Source: Parcubacteria group bacterium
GTDB lineage: Bacteria > Patescibacteriota > Minisyncoccia > UBA6257 > JACRHW01
NCBI GenBank assembly: GCA_016217555.1
Contig: JACRHW010000017.1
Span: 5,093-69,092, forward strand
Reading direction: 5' to 3'
DNA length: 64,000 nucleotides
The notes under the pieces are model-generated. The model did no database searches and had not been told where the DNA came from. It saw only the letters and a program-made list of their open reading frames with translations. A program made the position numbers and the translations under genes. Shown here piece by piece: positions 3,059 through 53,679 of this stretch (positions within the stretch are counted from its first letter, which is position 1; each line of letters starts with the position of its first letter).

Positions 3059-3832
3059 ATGGAACAAAATATTAAAAATTATTTAGGTGTTGCAGGAATC
3101 ATTGCCATTCTTGCTGTGGCATATTCTAGTTATTCATATGTTGGGTCGTATGCGAGGTCAACAGATGTGAGGAGTTTTACGGTTTCAGCTGAAGGAAAAG
3201 CGATTGTATTGCCTGACGTAGCAAAATTTTCATTTAGTGTTATTACCGAAGGCGATAAGAACGTTGCTGACCTTCAGGGAGAAAATACAAAAAAAGTGAA
3301 CGACGCAATCAATTTTGTAATAGCGAAACACGTTGATAAAAAGGATATCAAAACCACAAATTATAATGTAACTCCTCGTTATCAGTATTCAAACTGTCCG
3401 CTTATGCAAAGCTCAAAACCATGTCCACCCCCATCAATCGCTGGATATACTATTTCCCAAGACGTTGAAGTTAGGGTTCGTGATTTCAGTGCAGTAGGGG
3501 ATATTCTTTCTGGTGTCGTGAGCAAGGGGGCTAATTCCGCTTCTGGGCTCTCTTTTACCGTAGATGATCAGACAAAGTATACGAATGAAGCACGTGCCGA
3601 GGCAATCCAAAAAGCGAAAGATCAGGCGAAGAGTATTGCACAGGCGGGTGGATTTCGATTGGGTCGTTTGGTATCGATACAAGAGGCGGGAGGGCAACAA
3701 CCATATGCGTATGATTCCTATGCTCCTAGTGGAATGATGAAGAGTTTTGCGGAGGTTGCGCCATCTCCTCGTATCGAGGCTGGTTCTAATGAAATAAAAA
3801 CATCCGTAACTCTTACCTACGAGATCGAGTAA
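3059..3832 (+). CDS. SIMPL (DUF541-like) secreted/periplasmic protein
   Basis: N-terminal TM/signal anchor, then FTVSAEGKAIVLPDVAKFSFSV... and C-terminal IEAGSNEIKTSVTLTYEI pattern typical of SIMPL/BP26-like proteins. Confidence 0.7.
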   Translation: MEQNIKNYLGVAGIIAILAVAYSSYSYVGSYARSTDVRSFTVSAEGKAIVLPDVAKFSFSVITEGDKNVADLQGENTKKVNDAINFVIAKHVDKKDIKTTNYNVTPRYQYSNCPLMQSSKPCPPPSIAGYTISQDVEVRVRDFSAVGDILSGVVSKGANSASGLSFTVDDQTKYTNEARAEAIQKAKDQAKSIAQAGGFRLGRLVSIQEAGGQQPYAYDSYAPSGMMKSFAEVAPSPRIEAGSNEIKTSVTLTYEIE

Positions 3833-4052
3833 CATCTATCTATTTTACGCATAGCTTTGTCAGAAACTACGTTTTTTATTCGCTGTACTGTCTTGTACAG
3901 CTCACAAAAAGCCTCGTTTCTTTCGCGCTCTGCATCAAAATATATAGATGTTATAGTATTTCCTGAGCTCGCCTGTGGTGAGTTTATCGAATCCATCGAG
4001 GACCCACTACTATTGTCCTATAAGCTATCAGCTAACACCTAAAAGCTAAACT

Positions 4053-23543: not shown

Positions 23544-23680
23544 AGCGCTGTTCGGTAACCTCATACGTATTAGTGCCTGAGCTTGTCGAAGGCCCACCTT
23601 TCTCTAAGGAAACCCTTCGACTTCCTTCGACAAGCTCAAGACAAGTCGCTCGGGGAATACCATGTTTCCGAACAGCGTCG
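23544..23680. mobile_element. MITE-like element, family H copy 1 (outer TIR agcgctgttcggtaacctc; PELVEG-type palindrome inside)
   Basis: outer inverted repeats 23544-23562 / 23664-23680; inner gcctgagcttgtcgaaggc...cccttcgacttcc. Confidence 0.7.
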
Positions 23681-26891: not shown

Positions 26892-27004
26892 GGCGCTGTT
26901 TTGAAACACAATATTCCCTGAGCGAAGTCGAAGGGTTTCCTTAGAGAAAGGCAGGCCTTCGACAAGCTCAGGCACTAGTAATTATGAGGTTACCGAACAG
27001 TGCC
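26892..27004. mobile_element. MITE-like element, family H copy 2 (inverted relative to copy 1)
   Basis: ggcgctgttttgaaac ... gaggttaccgaacagtgcc around cctgagcgaagtcgaaggg...gccttcgacaagctcaggc. Confidence 0.7.
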
Positions 27005-27016
27005 AAATAGACTTGA

Positions 27017-27116
27017 CCCCGTTAGAAGTAGACAAAATGTGTTAAAATCTTTAGGCTAAAAATGTGGTATCTAGATGTATTGAATCTTAAAAACGTTTTC
27101 GCTACTTCTAACGGGG
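27017..27116. mobile_element. 100-bp MITE, family I copy 1, TIR ccccgttagaagtag, TSD TTGA
   Basis: TIRs at both ends; TTGA at 27013-27016 and 27117-27120. Confidence 0.75.
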
Positions 27117-27238: not shown

Positions 27239-28309
27239 ATGCAAAATAAAACTCTTATACAATTAATTCATGATGCGTTGGGGATTTTAAACAAGAGGTC
27301 GAGGATTATCATCGAAAAAAGATACGGTTTGAAAACCGGTAATTTTGTAACTCTTGAGGCGATCGGGCAGGAGTATGGCATTACACGAGAGCGCGTGCGT
27401 CAAATCGAGGCGGCGGCCCTTACCAATCTTAAGAAGCATCGCATGCTTGATGGTCTAGAAGAGCCCATCCAAAAAACCAAAAACCATCTTGCACAATTGG
27501 GGGGTGTCTCTAGAGAGGATGTCCTTCTCGCTGCCGCAGCTCCTTATTTTGGTGTCGAGGATTCTAAAAAATTAAAAGCTTTTTATCCTTACTTCTATTT
27601 TGTTATGGAGCAGTCAGGATTGAAGCACTTGCCAGAAAGTGAGGAGTTTCACTCCGCATGGTATTTAGATACTGCATCGTTTCATCGCGCCAAGGATACT
27701 ATCCAGAAGTTCGAAGCATATCTTGAGGAGGTGGAGCGTCCTTTGGCTGCACATCTCGTTTCAGAACATATCAATCTGTTTTCAAAAAGTGGTACGGCAG
27801 TGAGTGATGAGTATTTGCAGAATCTTATTTCACTTTCAAAATTGTTTGGAAACAATGTCTTTGGGGAATTTGGGCTTGTCTCATGGAAGGAGATTGCGCC
27901 ACGTGGTGCAAGAGACAAGGCATTTCTCGTTCTCAAAAAGCATACAAAGCCACTTCATTTTCGACTTATCACACAACACATTAATGAGGCCAAATTTGCT
28001 CCCAAAAAGAGCCATCCGCTTACCGTCCACAATGAGCTTATTAAGGATAACCGATTCGTGCTCGTGGGGCGTGGGGTATATGCCTTGAAGGAGCGGGGGT
28101 ATGAGGCGGGAACAGTGCGCGATGTACTCAAAAGCCTTCTTCGTAAGAATGGTCCTCTTCCTCTCGCTTCACTTACACAATTGGTAAGCGATCAGCGCTT
28201 AGTTAAAGAAAACACGATCTTACTTAATCTTCAAAATCGTCAACACTTTTTAAAAAGTTCTGATGGGGTGTATACTGTGAAGGGCGATAGTTCAAACAAA
28301 ACAAAATAG
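27239..28309 (+). CDS. DNA-binding protein: sigma-70 region-4 HTH fused to two HARE-HTH-like modules
   Basis: EKRYGL...TLEAIGQEYGITRERVRQIEAAAL (sigma r4); ...FGEFGLVSW and HNELIKDNRFVLVGRGVYAL (HARE-HTH pattern D-x-RF...G-x-Y/W-x-L). Confidence 0.65.
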   Translation: MQNKTLIQLIHDALGILNKRSRIIIEKRYGLKTGNFVTLEAIGQEYGITRERVRQIEAAALTNLKKHRMLDGLEEPIQKTKNHLAQLGGVSREDVLLAAAAPYFGVEDSKKLKAFYPYFYFVMEQSGLKHLPESEEFHSAWYLDTASFHRAKDTIQKFEAYLEEVERPLAAHLVSEHINLFSKSGTAVSDEYLQNLISLSKLFGNNVFGEFGLVSWKEIAPRGARDKAFLVLKKHTKPLHFRLITQHINEAKFAPKKSHPLTVHNELIKDNRFVLVGRGVYALKERGYEAGTVRDVLKSLLRKNGPLPLASLTQLVSDQRLVKENTILLNLQNRQHFLKSSDGVYTVKGDSSNKTK

Positions 28310-28452
28310 GATTTACGCGTTTGGCGCATTTTTTCGTCAGAAACTCCGGTACAGAACGCAGTATATTTTTAATATTGCTTATTCTGATGAATGAAACGAA
28401 TAGTTTCGTTCATCGTTTTCTCCTCGAACTGCATCCAAACGCGTAAATCCTA
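28307..28452. mobile_element. 146-bp MITE-like element (family J) with 18-nt perfect TIR
   Basis: taggatttacgcgtttgg ... ccaaacgcgtaaatccta; internal hairpin gatgaatgaaacga/tcgtttcgttcatc. Confidence 0.7.
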
Positions 28453-32748: not shown

Positions 32749-32767
32749 TGATTCAGAAAATTTTATA

Positions 32768-32902
32768 CGTATCAGCTCACAAGACTGAGTGGAAAAATAA
32801 GATAGTGCCTGAGCTTGTCGAAGGCCTACCATAAGGAAACCCTTCGACTTCGCTCAGGGACTATAGATAAAGACTAACTTACTCAGAGTTGTGAGCTGAT
32901 AC
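32768..32902. mobile_element. nested palindromic element: outer TIR gtatcagctcacaagactgagt, inner PELVEG-type hairpin
   Basis: atcagctcacaagactgagt ... actcagagttgtgagctgat flanking gcctgagcttgtcgaaggc...cccttcgacttcgctcagg. Confidence 0.65.
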
Positions 32903-32975
32903 TTTTACACCTATTGACTAAACTACACCGTTTGTGGTATTTTTGTTTTAGCACATAGAAAAAGGAGGTAGTGAG

Positions 32976-44753: not shown

Positions 44754-44791
44754 TTATAGTATTGCCTGAGCTTGTCGAAGGCTTACCATTT

Positions 44792-45553: not shown

Positions 45554-46088
45554 CATTCTGTAACGTAATTTCTTATCGATTCGTTATAATTAACAAGGAA
45601 CACAGTGTTTTTTATTAGTTTTCCACAGTGAGATCTATTGCAAGGGGGTTGCTTTTTTTGCTAAAATAGAGTATACTAAGCAGGACTCAAGGAATGTAGG
45701 AAAACACTAGGTTTTTTCGCCAAACGGGCGGGCTTTTAGGGAGCGTTTTTCTTTTCACACCTGTTTTATCGCAATGTTGTGATACAATAGGTGTGAAAAG
45801 AAAAGGGACGTAACGATTGCAGTAGATAGACAGGAGGTGATGGACTGTTATTTGAAAACTGAATAAGGGCTAGATAAAAAATGGTAGCGCCTGAGCTTGT
45901 CGAAGGCTTACCAAATTAATTCTTTTTTTCTCGATGTAATGAGTCGTAATCAAGGTCGGTGATTCGTTTAACACGAATCATGCTCTCGGCTCTTCTAGAA
46001 ATGTGTATGTAAACAAATAATTAAGCGATTTGTTTTGTGGCGTCGAACCACAAAGGAATCGCGTAACAAAAATTAAATACAAAAAATT

Positions 46089-50529: not shown

Positions 50530-51114
50530 ATGGAAAACTACGATCTTATTAAAAAACTTCGTGAGGCAACAGGCGTCTCTCTTATGGAGTGCAAAAATGC
50601 ACTTGAGGAAATGGGGGGTGATTTTGATAAAGCATTCGAGTTGATGAGAAAGAAGGGGATTGCCAAAGCAGAGAAGAAGGCAGAGCGAGCCACAGGGGTA
50701 GGAAGAATAGAGGCGTATGTTCACGCAGGTAATCGTGTGGGAGTGCTTCTTGATATTCGTTGTGAGACAGATTTTGTCGCTCGAAATGAAGTATTTATAG
50801 AGTTGGCGCACGAGGTTGCCATGCAGATAGCAGCACTTTCTCCAAGGTACGTGAATAGTGATGAGGTTCCTGCGGAGGTTATTGCAAGTGAGCGCGCTAT
50901 ATTTGAGGCAAGTATGGCAGACCAAAAGAAACCAAAAGAAATGCTCGATAAAATTATCGATGGTAAACTTGCAAAACGTTTTGAGGAGATGTGTCTTTTA
51001 GATCAGCCTTTTATTAAGGATCAGACGATGAAGGTGCGCGATATTATTAAAAATTATATTTCAAAGTTGGGTGAAAATATCGTGGTGGCACGCTTCACCC
51101 GTTTTGAGGCATAA
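50530..51114 (+). CDS. tsf: elongation factor Ts (short form)
   Basis: UBA-like N terminus LIKKLREATGVSLMECKNAL; follows rpsB. Confidence 0.92.
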   Translation: MENYDLIKKLREATGVSLMECKNALEEMGGDFDKAFELMRKKGIAKAEKKAERATGVGRIEAYVHAGNRVGVLLDIRCETDFVARNEVFIELAHEVAMQIAALSPRYVNSDEVPAEVIASERAIFEASMADQKKPKEMLDKIIDGKLAKRFEEMCLLDQPFIKDQTMKVRDIIKNYISKLGENIVVARFTRFEA

Positions 51115-51119
51115 TCTTC

Positions 51120-51476
51120 ATGTACGCGTTTTTCCCTTATTTCGGTATTTTCCTTGGGTTGGGTTTGGTGCTTTACGTAGTGATTAAAAATATCCCTGCA
51201 ACAGGAGACGAAGAGCTGATGCTTCTTTATGAGCGGTTTTCTATTCGGCGCTATGTTTCACATGCTACTATAGAGAAAATAGATGGATATGCTGCAGTGT
51301 ATTCAGAGAAGGTGTTAAGAAAGACGAGGGTATTTCTTCTTAAGGCAGAACGTTCTGTTTCAGGCGCTCTTCACCACATGAAAGAAATTGCCCACAGAAC
51401 TTCTCATGCAAAGAAGAATAGTATCGTAAGTTCGGTTGCAGAAGAGAAGAAAGAAGACGAGAAGTCTGCCAAGTAG
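51120..51476 (+). CDS. hypothetical protein with one N-terminal TM
   Basis: 118-aa ORF, stop 1 nt before the tRNA cluster. Confidence 0.45.
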   Translation: MYAFFPYFGIFLGLGLVLYVVIKNIPATGDEELMLLYERFSIRRYVSHATIEKIDGYAAVYSEKVLRKTRVFLLKAERSVSGALHHMKEIAHRTSHAKKNSIVSSVAEEKKEDEKSAK

Positions 51477-51512
51477 TGCCACCTTAGCTCAGCTGGCAGA
51501 GCAACACTTTTG

Positions 51513-51678
51513 CTCCGATATTGTATAAAATCATAAATTTTGTACAATATCGAGAGTCCTCGATTTTATAAAAAAAATTTGCCAGAGTAGCTCAGCTGGC
51601 AGAGCAACACTTTTGTAAAGTGAAGGTCGCGAGTTCGAATCTCGCCTCTGGCTCACGCAAATTTTTATAAAATCGGGA
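51513..51678 (+). mobile_element. 166-bp structured insert in the outer tRNA anticodon, carrying the inner tRNA-Thr
   Basis: 15-bp hairpin 51516-51552; 17-bp AT helix 51561-51580/51659-51675 enclosing the tRNA; short terminal inverted repeat tccgat/atcggga. Confidence 0.6.
51581..51653 (+). tRNA. tRNA-Thr(UGU) (inner, intact)
   Basis: GCCAGAG/CTCTGGC acceptor, anticodon loop TTTGTAA, T arm GCGAG-TTCGAAT-CTCGC. Confidence 0.93.
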
Positions 51679-51687
51679 TAAAGTGAA

Positions 51688-51786
51688 CCCCGTTAGAAGT
51701 AGGTAAAAACATTTGTTGTTCGTCTCGTGTATATCATAGATGGTACAATAATGTAGAAAAATTGTTTTTGTATACTTCTAACGGGG
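51688..51786. mobile_element. 99-bp MITE, family I copy 2, inserted in the outer tRNA-Thr 3' half; TSD TGAA
   Basis: TIR ccccgttagaagta / tacttctaacgggg; TGAA at 51684-51687 and 51787-51790. Confidence 0.75.
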
Positions 51787-51827
51787 TGAAGGTCCTCGGT
51801 TCGAATCCGAGAGGTGGCTCAGGTATT

Positions 51828-51910
51828 GGGTGCGTCGCATAGCGGCAATTGCATGTGGCTGTAAACCACACGTCCTCGTGACTACGGGGGTTCGAGTCCC
51901 TCCGCACCCA
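51828..51910 (+). tRNA. tRNA-Tyr(GUA), class II with long variable arm
   Basis: GGGTGCG/CGCACCC acceptor, anticodon loop CTGTAAA, variable arm cGTCctcgtGACtac, T arm GGGGG-TTCGAGT-CCCTC. Confidence 0.9.
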
Positions 51911-51926
51911 CTTAATGGTGTATAAG

Positions 51927-51956
51927 AAAAGCGCCATTGTGTGGGCGCTTTTTGTT
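51927..51956. terminator. bidirectional terminator between tRNA cluster and patatin-like gene
   Basis: aaaagcgcc-attgtgtg-ggcgcttttt. Confidence 0.75.
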
Positions 51957-51957
51957 T

Positions 51958-52821
51958 TTAGATTTGTTGGAGGGCTTGAATGGTGAGTTTGTATCCTTGA
52001 TCGATAGAGTCTGAAATCTCTCCTTTTGAGAAATTGACGACGGTAAGATTCTGATACGTCTTGATCGGCTTAATGATGAGGATTTTCTTTCTGCCCACGA
52101 TCATTTCAAGCATGCGTAAACTTTTCTTTAGATTGTCAAAATAGATATAGTTGGATCCCCCCAGAGACTTCCAGCTTCCGGCAGGCATAAGGATGGGCCT
52201 TAATGCAGGCGTAAAGGGGTCTATTTGATGTTCTGGGTCAATTACAATGATGAGGTCAAGCATCTTTTTTATATCTTCTAGGGCTTCGGGGATCCATACA
52301 AAACCATCACAATAATCCATACCATTTATATGAACAGGAGGCATAATACCCGGAATACTTGCAGAAGCAAGAATTAATTTAATCAGGTACTTTTCGTTAT
52401 TACCTTGTGTCTTTAAACTTTTTGAAGAGAATAATTCTGCTTCATTGGTATTAAGATTTCGGGCTATTATGTCTAGGCGGGCATGAGAGGCAATGATTTT
52501 TCCTGCATCTATTTTTTTGATCAGTTCTTCAACGCGTTTATTGGGTTTATTTCTTCCTGCCTGGTTTAAGATAATGGTAAGTAAATCAAATAACTGACCA
52601 ACCCCCATCCGTTCTACATCTTGCCAAACACGTATTAGGGGATCGGCTGTAAAGTCATCTGAAATAAATTTTGCACCGTTGAATGTTCCTCCTGATACGA
52701 CTTGTAGGTAGGGGATATTTTCCTTTGGAATGTATTCTGTGATTGCTTTAAGGGCACCCGCCTGGAAGGCACATTTACAACCTCCGCTGGGCAGTATAAT
52801 TCCGACTTTTTGATGTTTCAT
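51958..52821 (-). CDS. patatin-like phospholipase
   Basis: SGGCKCAFQAG (GGxK oxyanion-like), VVSGG (degenerate GxSxG), CDGF (DG dyad). Confidence 0.5.
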   Translation of the reverse strand: MKHQKVGIILPSGGCKCAFQAGALKAITEYIPKENIPYLQVVSGGTFNGAKFISDDFTADPLIRVWQDVERMGVGQLFDLLTIILNQAGRNKPNKRVEELIKKIDAGKIIASHARLDIIARNLNTNEAELFSSKSLKTQGNNEKYLIKLILASASIPGIMPPVHINGMDYCDGFVWIPEALEDIKKMLDLIIVIDPEHQIDPFTPALRPILMPAGSWKSLGGSNYIYFDNLKKSLRMLEMIVGRKKILIIKPIKTYQNLTVVNFSKGEISDSIDQGYKLTIQALQQI

Positions 52822-53094: not shown

Positions 53095-53679
53095 ATGATT
53101 AATAAAGAAAAGCTTTTTGAATTATATACGCATGAAGGTAAATCAATGCAAGAAATTGCAATACTTTTGGGTTGCTCTGTTCACACTGTGGTTTATTGGA
53201 TGCAAAAGTATGATATTAAAAGGCGTTCTATAAGTGAGGCGGTATATAGAAAATGTAATCCAGGCGGAGATCCTTTTGAATTTGTTTTTCCAACCAATCA
53301 AGAAGAAGCACAATTATTTGGTTTAGGGATTGGTCTTTATTGGGGAGAGGGAACAAAAGCAAACGAGAGTTCTGTCCGTTTAGCCAATACCAATCCCGAG
53401 CTAATTAAGAAATTTATAGAGTTTCTTATTACATTTTTTAATATTAAAAAAGGTGATCTTAGGTTTGGCTTACAGATTTTTACAGATATTGATCCTAAAA
53501 AAGCTATGGACTTTTGGATAAAAAAGCTTACAATAAACAGGGATCAATTTTATAAGACGATTATTACGAAATCTGGTTCACTGGGTACTTATAGAAAGAA
53601 AAGTGAATACGGAGTGATTAGTGTTATGTATCACAATACTAAGATGAGAAATGTGTTAGTTGGTCTTTTGCCAATGTAG
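53095..53679 (+). CDS. HTH + LAGLIDADG-like (homing-endonuclease-type) protein
   Basis: N-terminal HTH (SMQEIAILLGCSVHTVVYWMQKY); LFGLGIGLYWGEGTK resembles a LAGLIDADG motif; sits between two tRNA genes; last 10 nt overlap tRNA-Thr(GGU). Confidence 0.5.
   Translation: MINKEKLFELYTHEGKSMQEIAILLGCSVHTVVYWMQKYDIKRRSISEAVYRKCNPGGDPFEFVFPTNQEEAQLFGLGIGLYWGEGTKANESSVRLANTNPELIKKFIEFLITFFNIKKGDLRFGLQIFTDIDPKKAMDFWIKKLTINRDQFYKTIITKSGSLGTYRKKSEYGVISVMYHNTKMRNVLVGLLPM

Follow-up and report, generated by a model that had tools for sequence, protein, structure and literature searches.

How can a tRNA gene be interrupted within its own anticodon by a second, complete tRNA gene with the same anticodon, and which of the two serves the cell now? 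The question is raised by a locus in a 64-kb stretch of DNA from a Parcubacteria group bacterium, referred to here as the window, in which a first-pass annotation made from the letters alone had described a broken tRNA-Thr(UGU) gene enclosing an intact one. All of the coordinates and sequences that it gave proved correct, and it offered two readings: a small mobile insert that destroys the resident tRNA and supplies its own replacement, or a large intervening sequence. The features of the locus, and one further repeat copy elsewhere in the window, are as follows.

51478..51512, + strand: nt 1-35 of the outer tRNA, now a pseudogene fragment, identical to the intact gene in the loci L002, L005, L006 and L007
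51513..51556, + strand: insert unit 1 (left end), a hairpin with a 16-bp inverted repeat, 94% complementary and fully paired in the minimum free energy (MFE) fold
51557..51678, + strand: insert unit 2 (right end), a 14-bp perfect inverted repeat forming an AT-rich helix with the inner tRNA in its loop
51581..51653, + strand: inner tRNA-Thr(UGU), intact, the presumed working gene; Thr(tgt) by ARAGORN, 67.6 bits on Rfam RF00005
51679..51687, + strand: nt 36-44 of the outer tRNA, TAAAGTGAA, matching the intact gene of relatives
51688..51786, unstranded: 99-bp MITE with the terminal inverted repeat (TIR) CCCCGTTAGAAGT(AG) and a TGAA duplication at 51684-87 and 51787-90
51791..51819, + strand: nt 45-73 of the outer tRNA, the same as in relatives, which also share CAGGTA, the initial 6 nt of the 3' flank
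51828..51911, + strand: tRNA-Tyr(GUA), 8 nt downstream of the outer tRNA-Thr, with a sequence that differs strongly from that of tRNA-Tyr in every relative
27017..27116, unstranded: a further MITE of this family, sharing the TIRs of the 99-bp copy and having TTGA as its duplication

The resident tRNA-Thr(UGU) gene is broken by two independent insertions. When both are removed, the segments 51478-51512, 51679-51687 and 51791-51819 (35 + 9 + 29 nt) give a continuous sequence of 73 nt, identified by ARAGORN as tRNA-Thr(tgt), which agrees at 73 of 73 positions with an uninterrupted gene at the syntenic position in every relative reached, across three separate lineages (loci L002, L005, L012-L014, L006, L017 and L007). 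On the tRNA covariance model (Rfam RF00005) the intact gene of the relatives and the repaired outer sequence both score 65.3 bits. These identical intact copies at the same place identify the outer gene as the resident one; the empty site that the first-pass annotation had proposed to look for thus exists, and its claim that the outer pieces once formed a single gene holds. The first fragment covers the 5' strand of the acceptor stem, the D arm, the 5' strand of the anticodon stem and the loop through G35, and the last one covers the end of the variable loop, the T arm, the 3' acceptor strand and the discriminator. The gene lies directly 3' of rpsB-tsf and a 118-aa ORF, whose stop codon is separated from the start of the tRNA by 1 nt, as it also is in L007, and the neighbours of the site are rpmE, rpsB, tsf, the 118-aa ORF and a patatin gene. 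No closer relative in an intermediate state was present in the protein collection, where EF-Ts identity reaches 92% in the nearest ones and the outer gene is intact in every case.

The smaller insertion is the 99-bp element, which had been recognised from its TIRs and TGAA duplication. It splits the outer tRNA between nt 44 and 45, the final four bases of the 9-nt middle fragment being the left copy of its target duplication, and the corresponding site is empty in relatives. The second family member at 27017-27116 shows that the sequence inserted in the tRNA recurs and is of a mobile type; its TIRs, its target duplication and its presence in two copies are the features of a DDE-type MITE. The window also holds many intergenic segments of 100-150 bp with inverted repeats at their borders.

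The larger insertion has a different character. It is 166 bp long, shares the orientation of the broken gene and, as first described, lies exactly between anticodon nucleotides 35 and 36, with clean junctions (TTTTG/CTCC and GGGA/TAAAG, the slash marking the boundary) at which zero bases were lost or duplicated. There is no target duplication, and no att-type direct repeat with a core of 2 bp or longer is present at either junction. The insert is made up of two related hairpin units and nothing else; they abut without a spacer (51513-51556 and 51557-51678) and fold into two self-contained helices, with an MFE of -62.8 kcal/mol and z = -8.8 relative to shuffled sequences. The first-pass description of self-contained helices therefore stands, although the helix lengths need correction: the first hairpin has 16 bp (19 bp with a bulged extension) rather than 15, and the AT helix has 14 perfect base pairs, or ~16 bp around the cloverleaf in the MFE fold, rather than 17. 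Unit 1 reads CTC-CGATATTGTATAAAAT, a CATAA loop, and ATTTTGTACAATATCG-A-GAG, and its arm is similar in sequence to that of unit 2, in which the closing helix pairs 51561-51574 with 51662-51675 and has TCC..GGA at its foot. The terminal inverted repeats, CCGAT(A)TT(G)TATAAAA, are imperfect (14/16 matched, with two 1-nt gaps), and 13 of 2000 shuffled sequences score as well. A search for further copies, suggested at the outset, returned no second copy of either the insert or its hairpin motif from the 64-kb window, the other fetched loci or IMG/VR. Among the 29 window ORFs scanned there was no transposase or integrase domain and no positive for a Y1 HUH TnpA, and a sigma-70 scan of 51100-52100 found no promoter-like site.

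The inner tRNA is a mosaic, in which nt 8-48 equal the resident gene and the acceptor and T stems are foreign. It differs from the outer tRNA at 14 positions (5-7, 49-52 and 62-68), and a pair-by-pair comparison bears out the earlier observation that these amount to 3 acceptor and 4 T-stem pairs, every one of them compensated. The acceptor strands read GCCAGAG...CTCTGGC in the inner tRNA and GCCACCU...AGGUGGC in the outer one. The identical block of 28 nt noted before is correct for the native sequence but extends to 41 nt (nt 8-48) once the outer gene is repaired, and the mosaic nature of the inner tRNA had been missed. Changes affect 14 of the 24 nucleotides of the acceptor and T stems, as against 0 of the 18 in the D and anticodon stems (Fisher p = 4e-5). 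With 14 compensated stem changes in the inner tRNA and none in the 64 nt of the outer fragments, a recent local duplication can be rejected, in agreement with the first-pass view. The inner acceptor and T arms are identical to those of a tRNA-Thr(CGU) in L003 and L004, from an unrelated organism of 33% GC, while L010, a more distant relative, has kept arms of the outer type and has a different anticodon stem. A degenerate search of GTDB species representatives with the inner 5' half gave no match, the sole genome found carrying the outer type; the inner 3' half matched only the tRNA-Thr(CGU) of the unrelated organism in JGI metagenomes; and, as regards a phage source, INPHARED yielded only generic tRNA similarity of ~75% and three IMG/VR scans yielded nothing. 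The inner tRNA retains the G1-C72 and C2-G71 pairs and the UGU anticodon, which in E. coli are the identity elements for ThrRS. To the question of whether another tRNA-Thr(UGU) exists, ARAGORN returned the inner gene as the only one within the 64-kb window.

We compared the insert with known classes of element. Bacterial MITEs and palindromic elements (Correia, RPE, ERIC-type) form multi-copy families, usually with target duplications, and carry no gene. The insert resembles them in its small size, TIRs, self-folding transcript and non-coding nature, and a bona fide MITE lies 10 bp away in the same gene; it differs in being single-copy so far, in having no duplication and in bearing a tRNA with the anticodon of its target. 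DDE-type MITEs specifically make target duplications, and against these the insert has the TIRs but neither the duplication nor a single further copy in the 64-kb window or IMG/VR. Compared with a palindrome-associated element (PATE) of the IS200/IS605 type, it has no duplication and carries a hairpin at each end; these, however, start 3 nt from the ends, the right "hairpin" has a 90-nt loop that encloses the tRNA, and as there is only one copy no conserved target or cleavage motif can be defined. An integron cassette was rejected since the target, GTAAAGT, resembles GTTRRRY but the left junction is G/CTCC and not G/TT.

Elements with P4-like, SSV1 or pNOB8-type integrases insert into tRNA genes, often in the anticodon or T loop, and restore them. 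The insert shares with these the presence of foreign DNA in a tRNA gene, an incoming tRNA sequence that keeps the function and an old fragment left behind. Such elements, however, supply no more of the tRNA than its overlap with att, fused to the host part, together with direct repeats and an integrase gene, whereas here a whole tRNA is nested, with no att repeat, fusion or integrase, in only 166 bp. The insert does not fit an integrase-mediated, tRNA-targeting integrative element, in that the presumed working tRNA lies wholly within the insert, unfused to the host gene, and that none of the 29 ORFs scanned has an integrase domain; a serine or tyrosine integrase was rejected because the junctions have no duplicated core. 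A single or double crossover within the shared 41-nt block would give chimeric tRNAs, and homology-facilitated illegitimate recombination predicts chimeric tRNAs or a homologous junction, rather than a nest with two novel junctions. To our knowledge, in every described case of a tRNA gene serving as a landing site for an integrase or a group I intron, the host gene is restored by fusion or spliced.

Archaeal disrupted tRNA genes (bulge-helix-bulge (BHB) introns, split and permuted genes) are expressed by means of a splicing endonuclease that acts on a BHB motif. Here too the coding sequence is broken at or close to the anticodon loop, but neither a splicing endonuclease nor a BHB is evident in the 64 kb, and the MITE breaks the gene further. 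Inspection of the sequence and of the MFE fold showed that the two 3-nt bulges 4 bp apart are absent; the ends of the insert pair together or with themselves, which leaves an internal loop (UUUGC / AUAA) of roughly symmetric shape, and an archaeal-type intron or split tRNA was rejected.

Taken together, these results lead us to conclude, with a probability of roughly 0.8, that the insert inactivated the resident gene, that the outer pieces are a recent pseudogene, and that the inner tRNA has taken over their job. Judging from its sequence, the inner tRNA would now decode ACA and ACG in the cell. Since no sigma-70-like promoter was found in the insert, transcription probably reaches the inner tRNA from the upstream operon, as it did the old gene. 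RNase P and 3' processing would be expected to release the tRNA. The outer halves are probably inert. As the outer fragments have no substitution, both the insert and the MITE are probably recent; the insert, or a redundant tRNA copy, may have come first, with the MITE entering later into an already dispensable gene.

The origin of the insert is less certain. Our tentative preference, which falls short of even odds, is for a small non-autonomous cassette with imperfect TIRs and two hairpin units that enters without a target duplication and carries a converted foreign or paralogous tRNA. The inner tRNA would on this account be a foreign or paralogous Thr tRNA in which gene conversion from the resident gene overwrote nt 8-48 at a time when both tRNAs shared one genome, a redundancy that would explain how the disruption of an essential gene was tolerated. 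A stronger version, in which the 166-bp unit is a minimal, selfish, hairpin-bounded and protein-less "self-replacing" tRNA cassette that enters, without duplication, the anticodon of a gene for which it can substitute, disables the resident copy and thereby becomes indispensable, seems to us quite unlikely; under it, the target-like centre and remodelled stems could reflect targeting by, and escape from, a driving enzyme, for example a tRNA-gene-specific endonuclease. The first reading of the first-pass annotation has thus held as far as the disruption of the resident gene is concerned, but its addiction-like mobile device finds no second copy in the sequences searched, no duplication and no nearby transposase or integrase to support it.

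The tRNA genes around the site are also of interest. The adjacent tRNA-Tyr(GUA) is, as judged from its sequence, a second replaced tRNA at this locus; in the comparison with relatives, tRNA-Thr is 100% and tRNA-Phe 97% identical, as opposed to the strongly diverged tRNA-Tyr. The clade has free-standing ORFs with HTH and LAGLIDADG domains between its tRNA genes, among them a LAGLIDADG ORF at 3161-4021 on the minus strand of L002, between Thr and Tyr (Pfam LAGLIDADG_3, 8.6e-14). The window has an ORF with a weaker HTH signal, which lies at 53095-53676 and separates Phe from Thr(GGU). In L006 and L007, ~25-nt direct repeats of the 3' end of tRNA-Tyr flank inserts of 55 and about 190 nt.

These surroundings bear on two other accounts of how the insert arrived. 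It might not be a mobile element at all but a fragment captured once at a double-strand break, where a site-specific nuclease (e.g., a homing endonuclease with tRNA genes as its targets) cut in the anticodon and the foreign or paralogous fragment that was ligated in happened to bear a tRNA-Thr. We regard this as possible although doubtful. The insert is single-copy across everything searched, the neighbouring tRNA-Tyr was replaced as well, and the HTH and LAGLIDADG ORFs recall phage T4 SegB, a free-standing homing endonuclease whose action replaces the tRNA region of the recipient with the donor version and which is a precedent for the endonuclease-driven inheritance of such a region (PMC2330249). 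SegB-type replacement by homologous repair, however, does not nest genes, the 166-bp insert has no linked endonuclease gene, and the ORFs of the clade have no known cleavage activity or target. The junction is also perfectly clean, with zero bases lost, and random capture would not be expected to yield an insert that stops exactly at the base of two related hairpins and has TIRs. A deletion remnant of a larger element (a prophage, an integrative island, or an intron with its endonuclease gene) that bore its own tRNA-Thr is less probable again. Transfer RNA genes are classic integration sites, the repeat-flanked inserts beside tRNA-Tyr in L006 and L007 resemble shrunken integrations at the same locus, and at the archaeal tRNA-Thr(GGU) locus of Caldiarchaeum a tRNA fragment lies beside an element-borne tRNA (PMC3293823). 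Against this, the junctions carry no att-type direct repeat, integrase crossover within the shared 41-nt block would produce two chimeric tRNAs and not a nested one, and the insert, made up wholly of two complete hairpin units, contains no integrase remnant.

Two further accounts would deny that the resident gene has been lost. The second reading of the first-pass annotation, that the insert is a functional intervening sequence and the outer tRNA is expressed by splicing, or as halves paired through the acceptor stem after release by RNase P/Z, is in our judgement extremely improbable. In its favour, the whole insert folds on itself, the outer pieces show no decay, and group I introns are proven at the 35/36 position of Patescibacteria tRNA-Asn, tRNA-Asp and tRNA-Tyr (PMC13011429), so that phylum, position in the anticodon loop and precise entry without duplication all match. 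Those introns, however, are ribozyme-sized and self-splicing and follow U35, with a U required at the end of the exon and a G at the end of the intron (Nakagawa et al., 2026; PMC13011429), whereas here two hairpins and a tRNA follow G35. The exon ends in ...CTTTTG/, a boundary that cannot be shifted without altering the mature sequence, the insert ends in ...ATCGGGA/ and has no terminal G (omega G), and 166 nt that include a 73-nt tRNA leave no space for a ribozyme core. RF00028 gave no hit at the gathering threshold in the window or at E <= 10 in 51300-52000, although some divergent Patescibacteria tRNA introns escape this model (PMC13011429). The symmetric internal loop at the junctions is not a bulge-helix-bulge, the MITE also splits the gene at nt 44/45, and a split anticodon loop would be unable to decode. 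As a complete tRNA with the same anticodon lies within the insert, there is no selection to rescue the outer gene. An assembly artefact, in which the metagenome-assembled contig is a chimera of strains with different tRNA-Thr alleles, is likewise very unlikely. The region does contain a 28-nt exact repeat, and Logan contigs from run SRR12113407, reached via the flanking proteins, end at 51506 and resume at 51786, leaving the middle without an independent assembly; look-ups of small ORFs spanning the insert junctions found none on record. Nevertheless, both Logan contigs agree exactly with the window as far as the complex region, a de Bruijn mis-join within shared k-mers would create a chimeric tRNA rather than the new junctions TTTTG/CTCCGAT and ATCGGGA/TAAAGTG, and the outer pieces make up the gene without a gap or a surplus base.

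The arrangement is thus real and unusual, and has been seen only once: an essential and presumably single-copy tRNA gene has been replaced by a complete alternative nested in its anticodon, with the exact empty site preserved in relatives. It also has a practical consequence for annotation pipelines, which report the inner gene and miss the broken outer one. Even as a one-off, the locus would document how an essential tRNA can be exchanged with no lethal intermediate, the swapping of a tRNA's functional centre between paralogues by gene conversion, and a site of repeated tRNA turnover, at which Thr and Tyr have both been replaced and endonuclease ORFs lie among the tRNA genes. Should the insert prove mobile, no smaller element would be known that ensures its persistence by standing in for the gene that it destroys, and tRNA genes in the reduced Patescibacteria genomes could be turned over horizontally by this route.

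We read this locus as a tRNA-Thr(UGU) pseudogene plus its replacement, with a probability of about 0.8. The sequence agrees with the layout given by the first-pass annotation, and we divide the locus as follows:

51478-51512: first piece (35 nt) of the outer tRNA-Thr gene
51513-51556: insert unit 1, a 16-bp hairpin lengthened by CTC/GAG past a one-base bulge
51557-51678: insert unit 2, an AT-rich helix (14 bp perfect, TCC/GGA foot) that closes on the inner tRNA
51581-51653: inner tRNA, a complete tRNA-Thr(tgt) by ARAGORN
51679-51687: second outer piece (9 nt)
51688-51786: 99-nt element with perfect 13-nt termini CCCCGTTAGAAGT and TGAA at both flanks
51791-51819: third outer piece (29 nt)
51828-51911: tRNA-Tyr(GUA), 8 nt past the broken tRNA-Thr

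When joined, the outer pieces give a 73-nt sequence that ARAGORN also identifies as tRNA-Thr(tgt). The window belongs to a MAG of the Patescibacteria (CPR); NCBI names its proteins 'Parcubacteria group bacterium', and related genomes bear the label Saccharibacteria or Patescibacteria. When 185,579 species genomes were scanned with the 5' half, made degenerate for both acceptor types, one contig matched (L002); more contigs were reached through homologues of EF-Ts and of the 118-aa ORF next to the site. The relatives that extend to the site form three groups (L002/L005/L012-L014, L006/L017 and L007/L008), with EF-Ts 91-92% and the 118-aa ORF 79-82% identical to the window's. The order rpsB, tsf, 118-aa ORF is kept in all contigs retrieved, and in those that reach the site the next gene is, without exception, an uninterrupted tRNA-Thr identical at 73/73 positions to the repaired outer sequence, scoring 65.3 bits on RF00005. 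The outer pieces were thus once a single gene, as had been proposed, and the relatives speak against the refuting case named by the first-pass annotation, in which the pieces had always been separate. With an empty site in all three groups, the outer gene is resident and both insertions are derived. There are no substitutions across the 64 nt of outer fragments while flanking coding DNA is only ~81% identical to the relatives, so the disruption is much younger than the split from them.

The 99-bp element is an ordinary multi-copy MITE: the window has another at 27017-27116, of similar length, with identical termini and flanked by a TTGA duplication. The copy within the tRNA interrupts the outer gene between nt 44 and 45, independently of the 166-bp insert. 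That the whole arrangement is an assembly chimera is unlikely, since the junction sequences are novel and are not joins within shared k-mers. Two Logan contigs of run SRR12113407, found via the flanking proteins, match the window exactly, one ending at 51506 and the other beginning at 51786. The latter position is where MITE-bearing and MITE-free alleles of the outer 3' half would begin sharing k-mers, and the breakpoint is a possible sign of mixed alleles in the sample.

The insert (166 nt, 51513-51678) fills the gap between the first two outer pieces and consists of exactly two abutting stem-loops, with a folding energy of -62.8 kcal/mol against -31.2 ± 3.6 in shuffles (z = -8.8). The two units have arms of related sequence (CGAT(A)TT(G)TATAAAA), so that the insert ends form imperfect terminal inverted repeats, whose score was equalled in 13 of 2000 shuffles. 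The junctions are clean (TTTTG/CTCC and GGGA/TAAAG, the slash marking the boundary), with no tRNA bases lost or duplicated. As no promoter-like site was found in or near the insert, its orientation is that of the old tRNA gene, and that gene starts 1 nt past the upstream stop codon, the insert is likely to be co-transcribed with the upstream operon.

The claim that the insert holds a full tRNA-Thr is upheld by a score of 67.6 bits on RF00005. Inner and outer tRNAs are identical over nt 8-48 and differ at 14 positions, comprising three acceptor pairs (5-68, 6-67 and 7-66) and four T-stem pairs, every difference being compensated. Changes thus affect 14/24 acceptor and T-stem positions and 0/18 in the D and anticodon stems (Fisher p = 4e-5). 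A more distant relative (L010) has kept the outer-type acceptor and T arms with a different anticodon stem, which indicates that in this clade the arms are stable and the centre variable; the inner tRNA shows the reverse. Elsewhere in JGI metagenomes, its 3' half was found only in the tRNA-Thr(CGU) genes of two contigs:

L003 3940-4012: tRNA-Thr(CGU) with inner-type arms
L004 11554-11626: tRNA-Thr(CGU) with inner-type arms

These match the inner gene exactly at nt 1-16 and over the last 31 nt (acceptor and T arms) and differ from it in the centre (D loop and anticodon arm). Their organism is unrelated to that of the window (33% GC; the single shared gene 37% identical); the metagenomes are of the JGI series that also yielded relatives L006 and L017-L021. 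The simplest account of this mosaic would be that gene conversion copied a patch of the resident gene into a Thr tRNA of foreign or paralogous origin. The nt 8-48 tract would be structurally neutral, since the D and anticodon arms lie in it with both of their strands. If conversion is right, both tRNA genes were formerly intact together in one genome, which would remove the problem of a lethal intermediate.

The first-pass annotation had also considered a functional intervening sequence, and this we reject. Group I introns of Patescibacteria tRNA-Asn, Asp and Tyr do lie at exactly 35/36, after U and ending in G (PMC13011429), but at this locus the last base is G in the exon and A in the insert, 73 of the 166 nt are tRNA, and intron covariance models gave no match to the insert region even at E <= 10. 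The bulge-helix-bulge (BHB) geometry of BHB introns is absent, and given the MITE break and the split anticodon loop the outer gene could not be rescued for decoding. Integrase-type integration is not supported, as there is no att repeat or fusion tRNA and no integrase was found close to the site; the left junction does not fit an integron model; and recombination within the shared block predicts chimeric tRNAs rather than a nested gene.

How the insert arrived is a matter of weighing. A small mobile cassette, at somewhat less than even odds, would account for the terminal inverted repeats and for ends that fall exactly at hairpin feet; also in its favour, 100-150-bp segments bounded by inverted repeats occur in nearly every co-directional intergenic spacer checked. 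Many such spacers hold segments of 100-146 bp closed by often perfect repeats of 14-19 bp, with no Rfam match:

3830-3953: inverted-repeat-closed segment
16599-16712: inverted-repeat-closed segment
28307-28452: inverted-repeat-closed segment
37033-37133: inverted-repeat-closed segment
39823-39936: inverted-repeat-closed segment

The segments at 28307-28452 and 3830-3953, both bounded by TA, share interior motifs (CGCAT..TTNGTCAGAAACT and CTGCATC) and differ in their terminal repeats. Against a mobile cassette, the insert has no target duplication, no enzyme was found, and it is single copy: neither it nor its hairpin motif recurs in the window, the fetched loci or IMG/VR, a phage collection returned only generic tRNA similarity, and the two large collections (species genomes and JGI metagenomes) were queried with tRNA halves. 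The mobile replacement element of the first-pass annotation thus gained no further copies, and its addiction-type, selfish form is improbable. The rivals are a fragment captured at a nuclease-made break and the deletion remnant of a larger element, and the locus context is consistent with either:

L002 3161-4021 (-): free-standing LAGLIDADG_3 + HTH ORF (Pfam 8.6e-14), between tRNA-Thr and tRNA-Tyr
window 53095-53676 (+): 194-aa HTH ORF with LFGLGIGLYWGEG motif, weaker, between tRNA-Phe and tRNA-Thr(GGU)
L006 734-815: region with a 55-nt insert 3' of intact tRNA-Tyr
L007 4357-4575: region with a ~190-nt insert 3' of intact tRNA-Tyr

The two ORFs, only weakly similar to each other (BLASTP E = 0.002), could be tRNA-gene-associated homing endonucleases. 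Behind each insert the tRNA-Tyr 3' end recurs with its flank (ATTCCCTCTCTGCCCACCAATACAAA), an att-like direct repeat of ~25 nt that points to integrations at this locus which have since shrunk. The window tRNA-Tyr is strongly diverged from those of L002, L006 and L007, which are near-identical among themselves; in the same comparison tRNA-Thr is 100% and tRNA-Phe 97% identical. The terminator beside it is conserved, and nothing is left of the old Tyr gene. This is a second, clean tRNA replacement here. Together, the ORFs between tRNA genes, the repeat-flanked inserts and the diverged tRNA-Tyr make the locus a hot spot of tRNA turnover.

Other repeats are present as well. The core CCTGAGCTTGTCGAAGGCC occurs five times in the window at <=1 mismatch (0.01 expected), with a sixth, partial and inverted match at 3 mismatches:

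23546-23677: core copy
26900-27010 (-): core copy
32764-32907: core copy
44765-44783: core copy
45890-45908: core copy

Three copies sit in a ~130-nt structured unit (..GTCGAAGG..CCTTCGAC..GCTCAGG) with variable outer helices, which has no Rfam family and is absent from the fetched relatives. In L006-type relatives, a bAvd and reverse-transcriptase (RVT_1) pair, a combination characteristic of diversity-generating retroelements, lies directly upstream of rpmE:

L017 364-1938: bAvd + RVT_1
L018 713-2287: bAvd + RVT_1
L019 364-1938: bAvd + RVT_1

Among known systems, tRNA-targeting integrative elements are alike in outcome, as the gene is struck yet its function kept, but the insert arrangement departs from them in their defining features, as it does from group I introns, BHB introns and ordinary MITEs. 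The literature searched yielded no bacterial example in which the anticodon of a tRNA gene houses a second gene for the same isoacceptor. Closest comes tRNA-Thr(GGU) of the archaeon Caldiarchaeum, a locus with a recombinase gene and direct repeats (PMC3293823). Although this is a single instance and its mechanism a proposal, the arrangement is real and surprising and has a clean empty site, and the kind of event it represents is one in which incoming DNA disrupts a tRNA gene while supplying its function.
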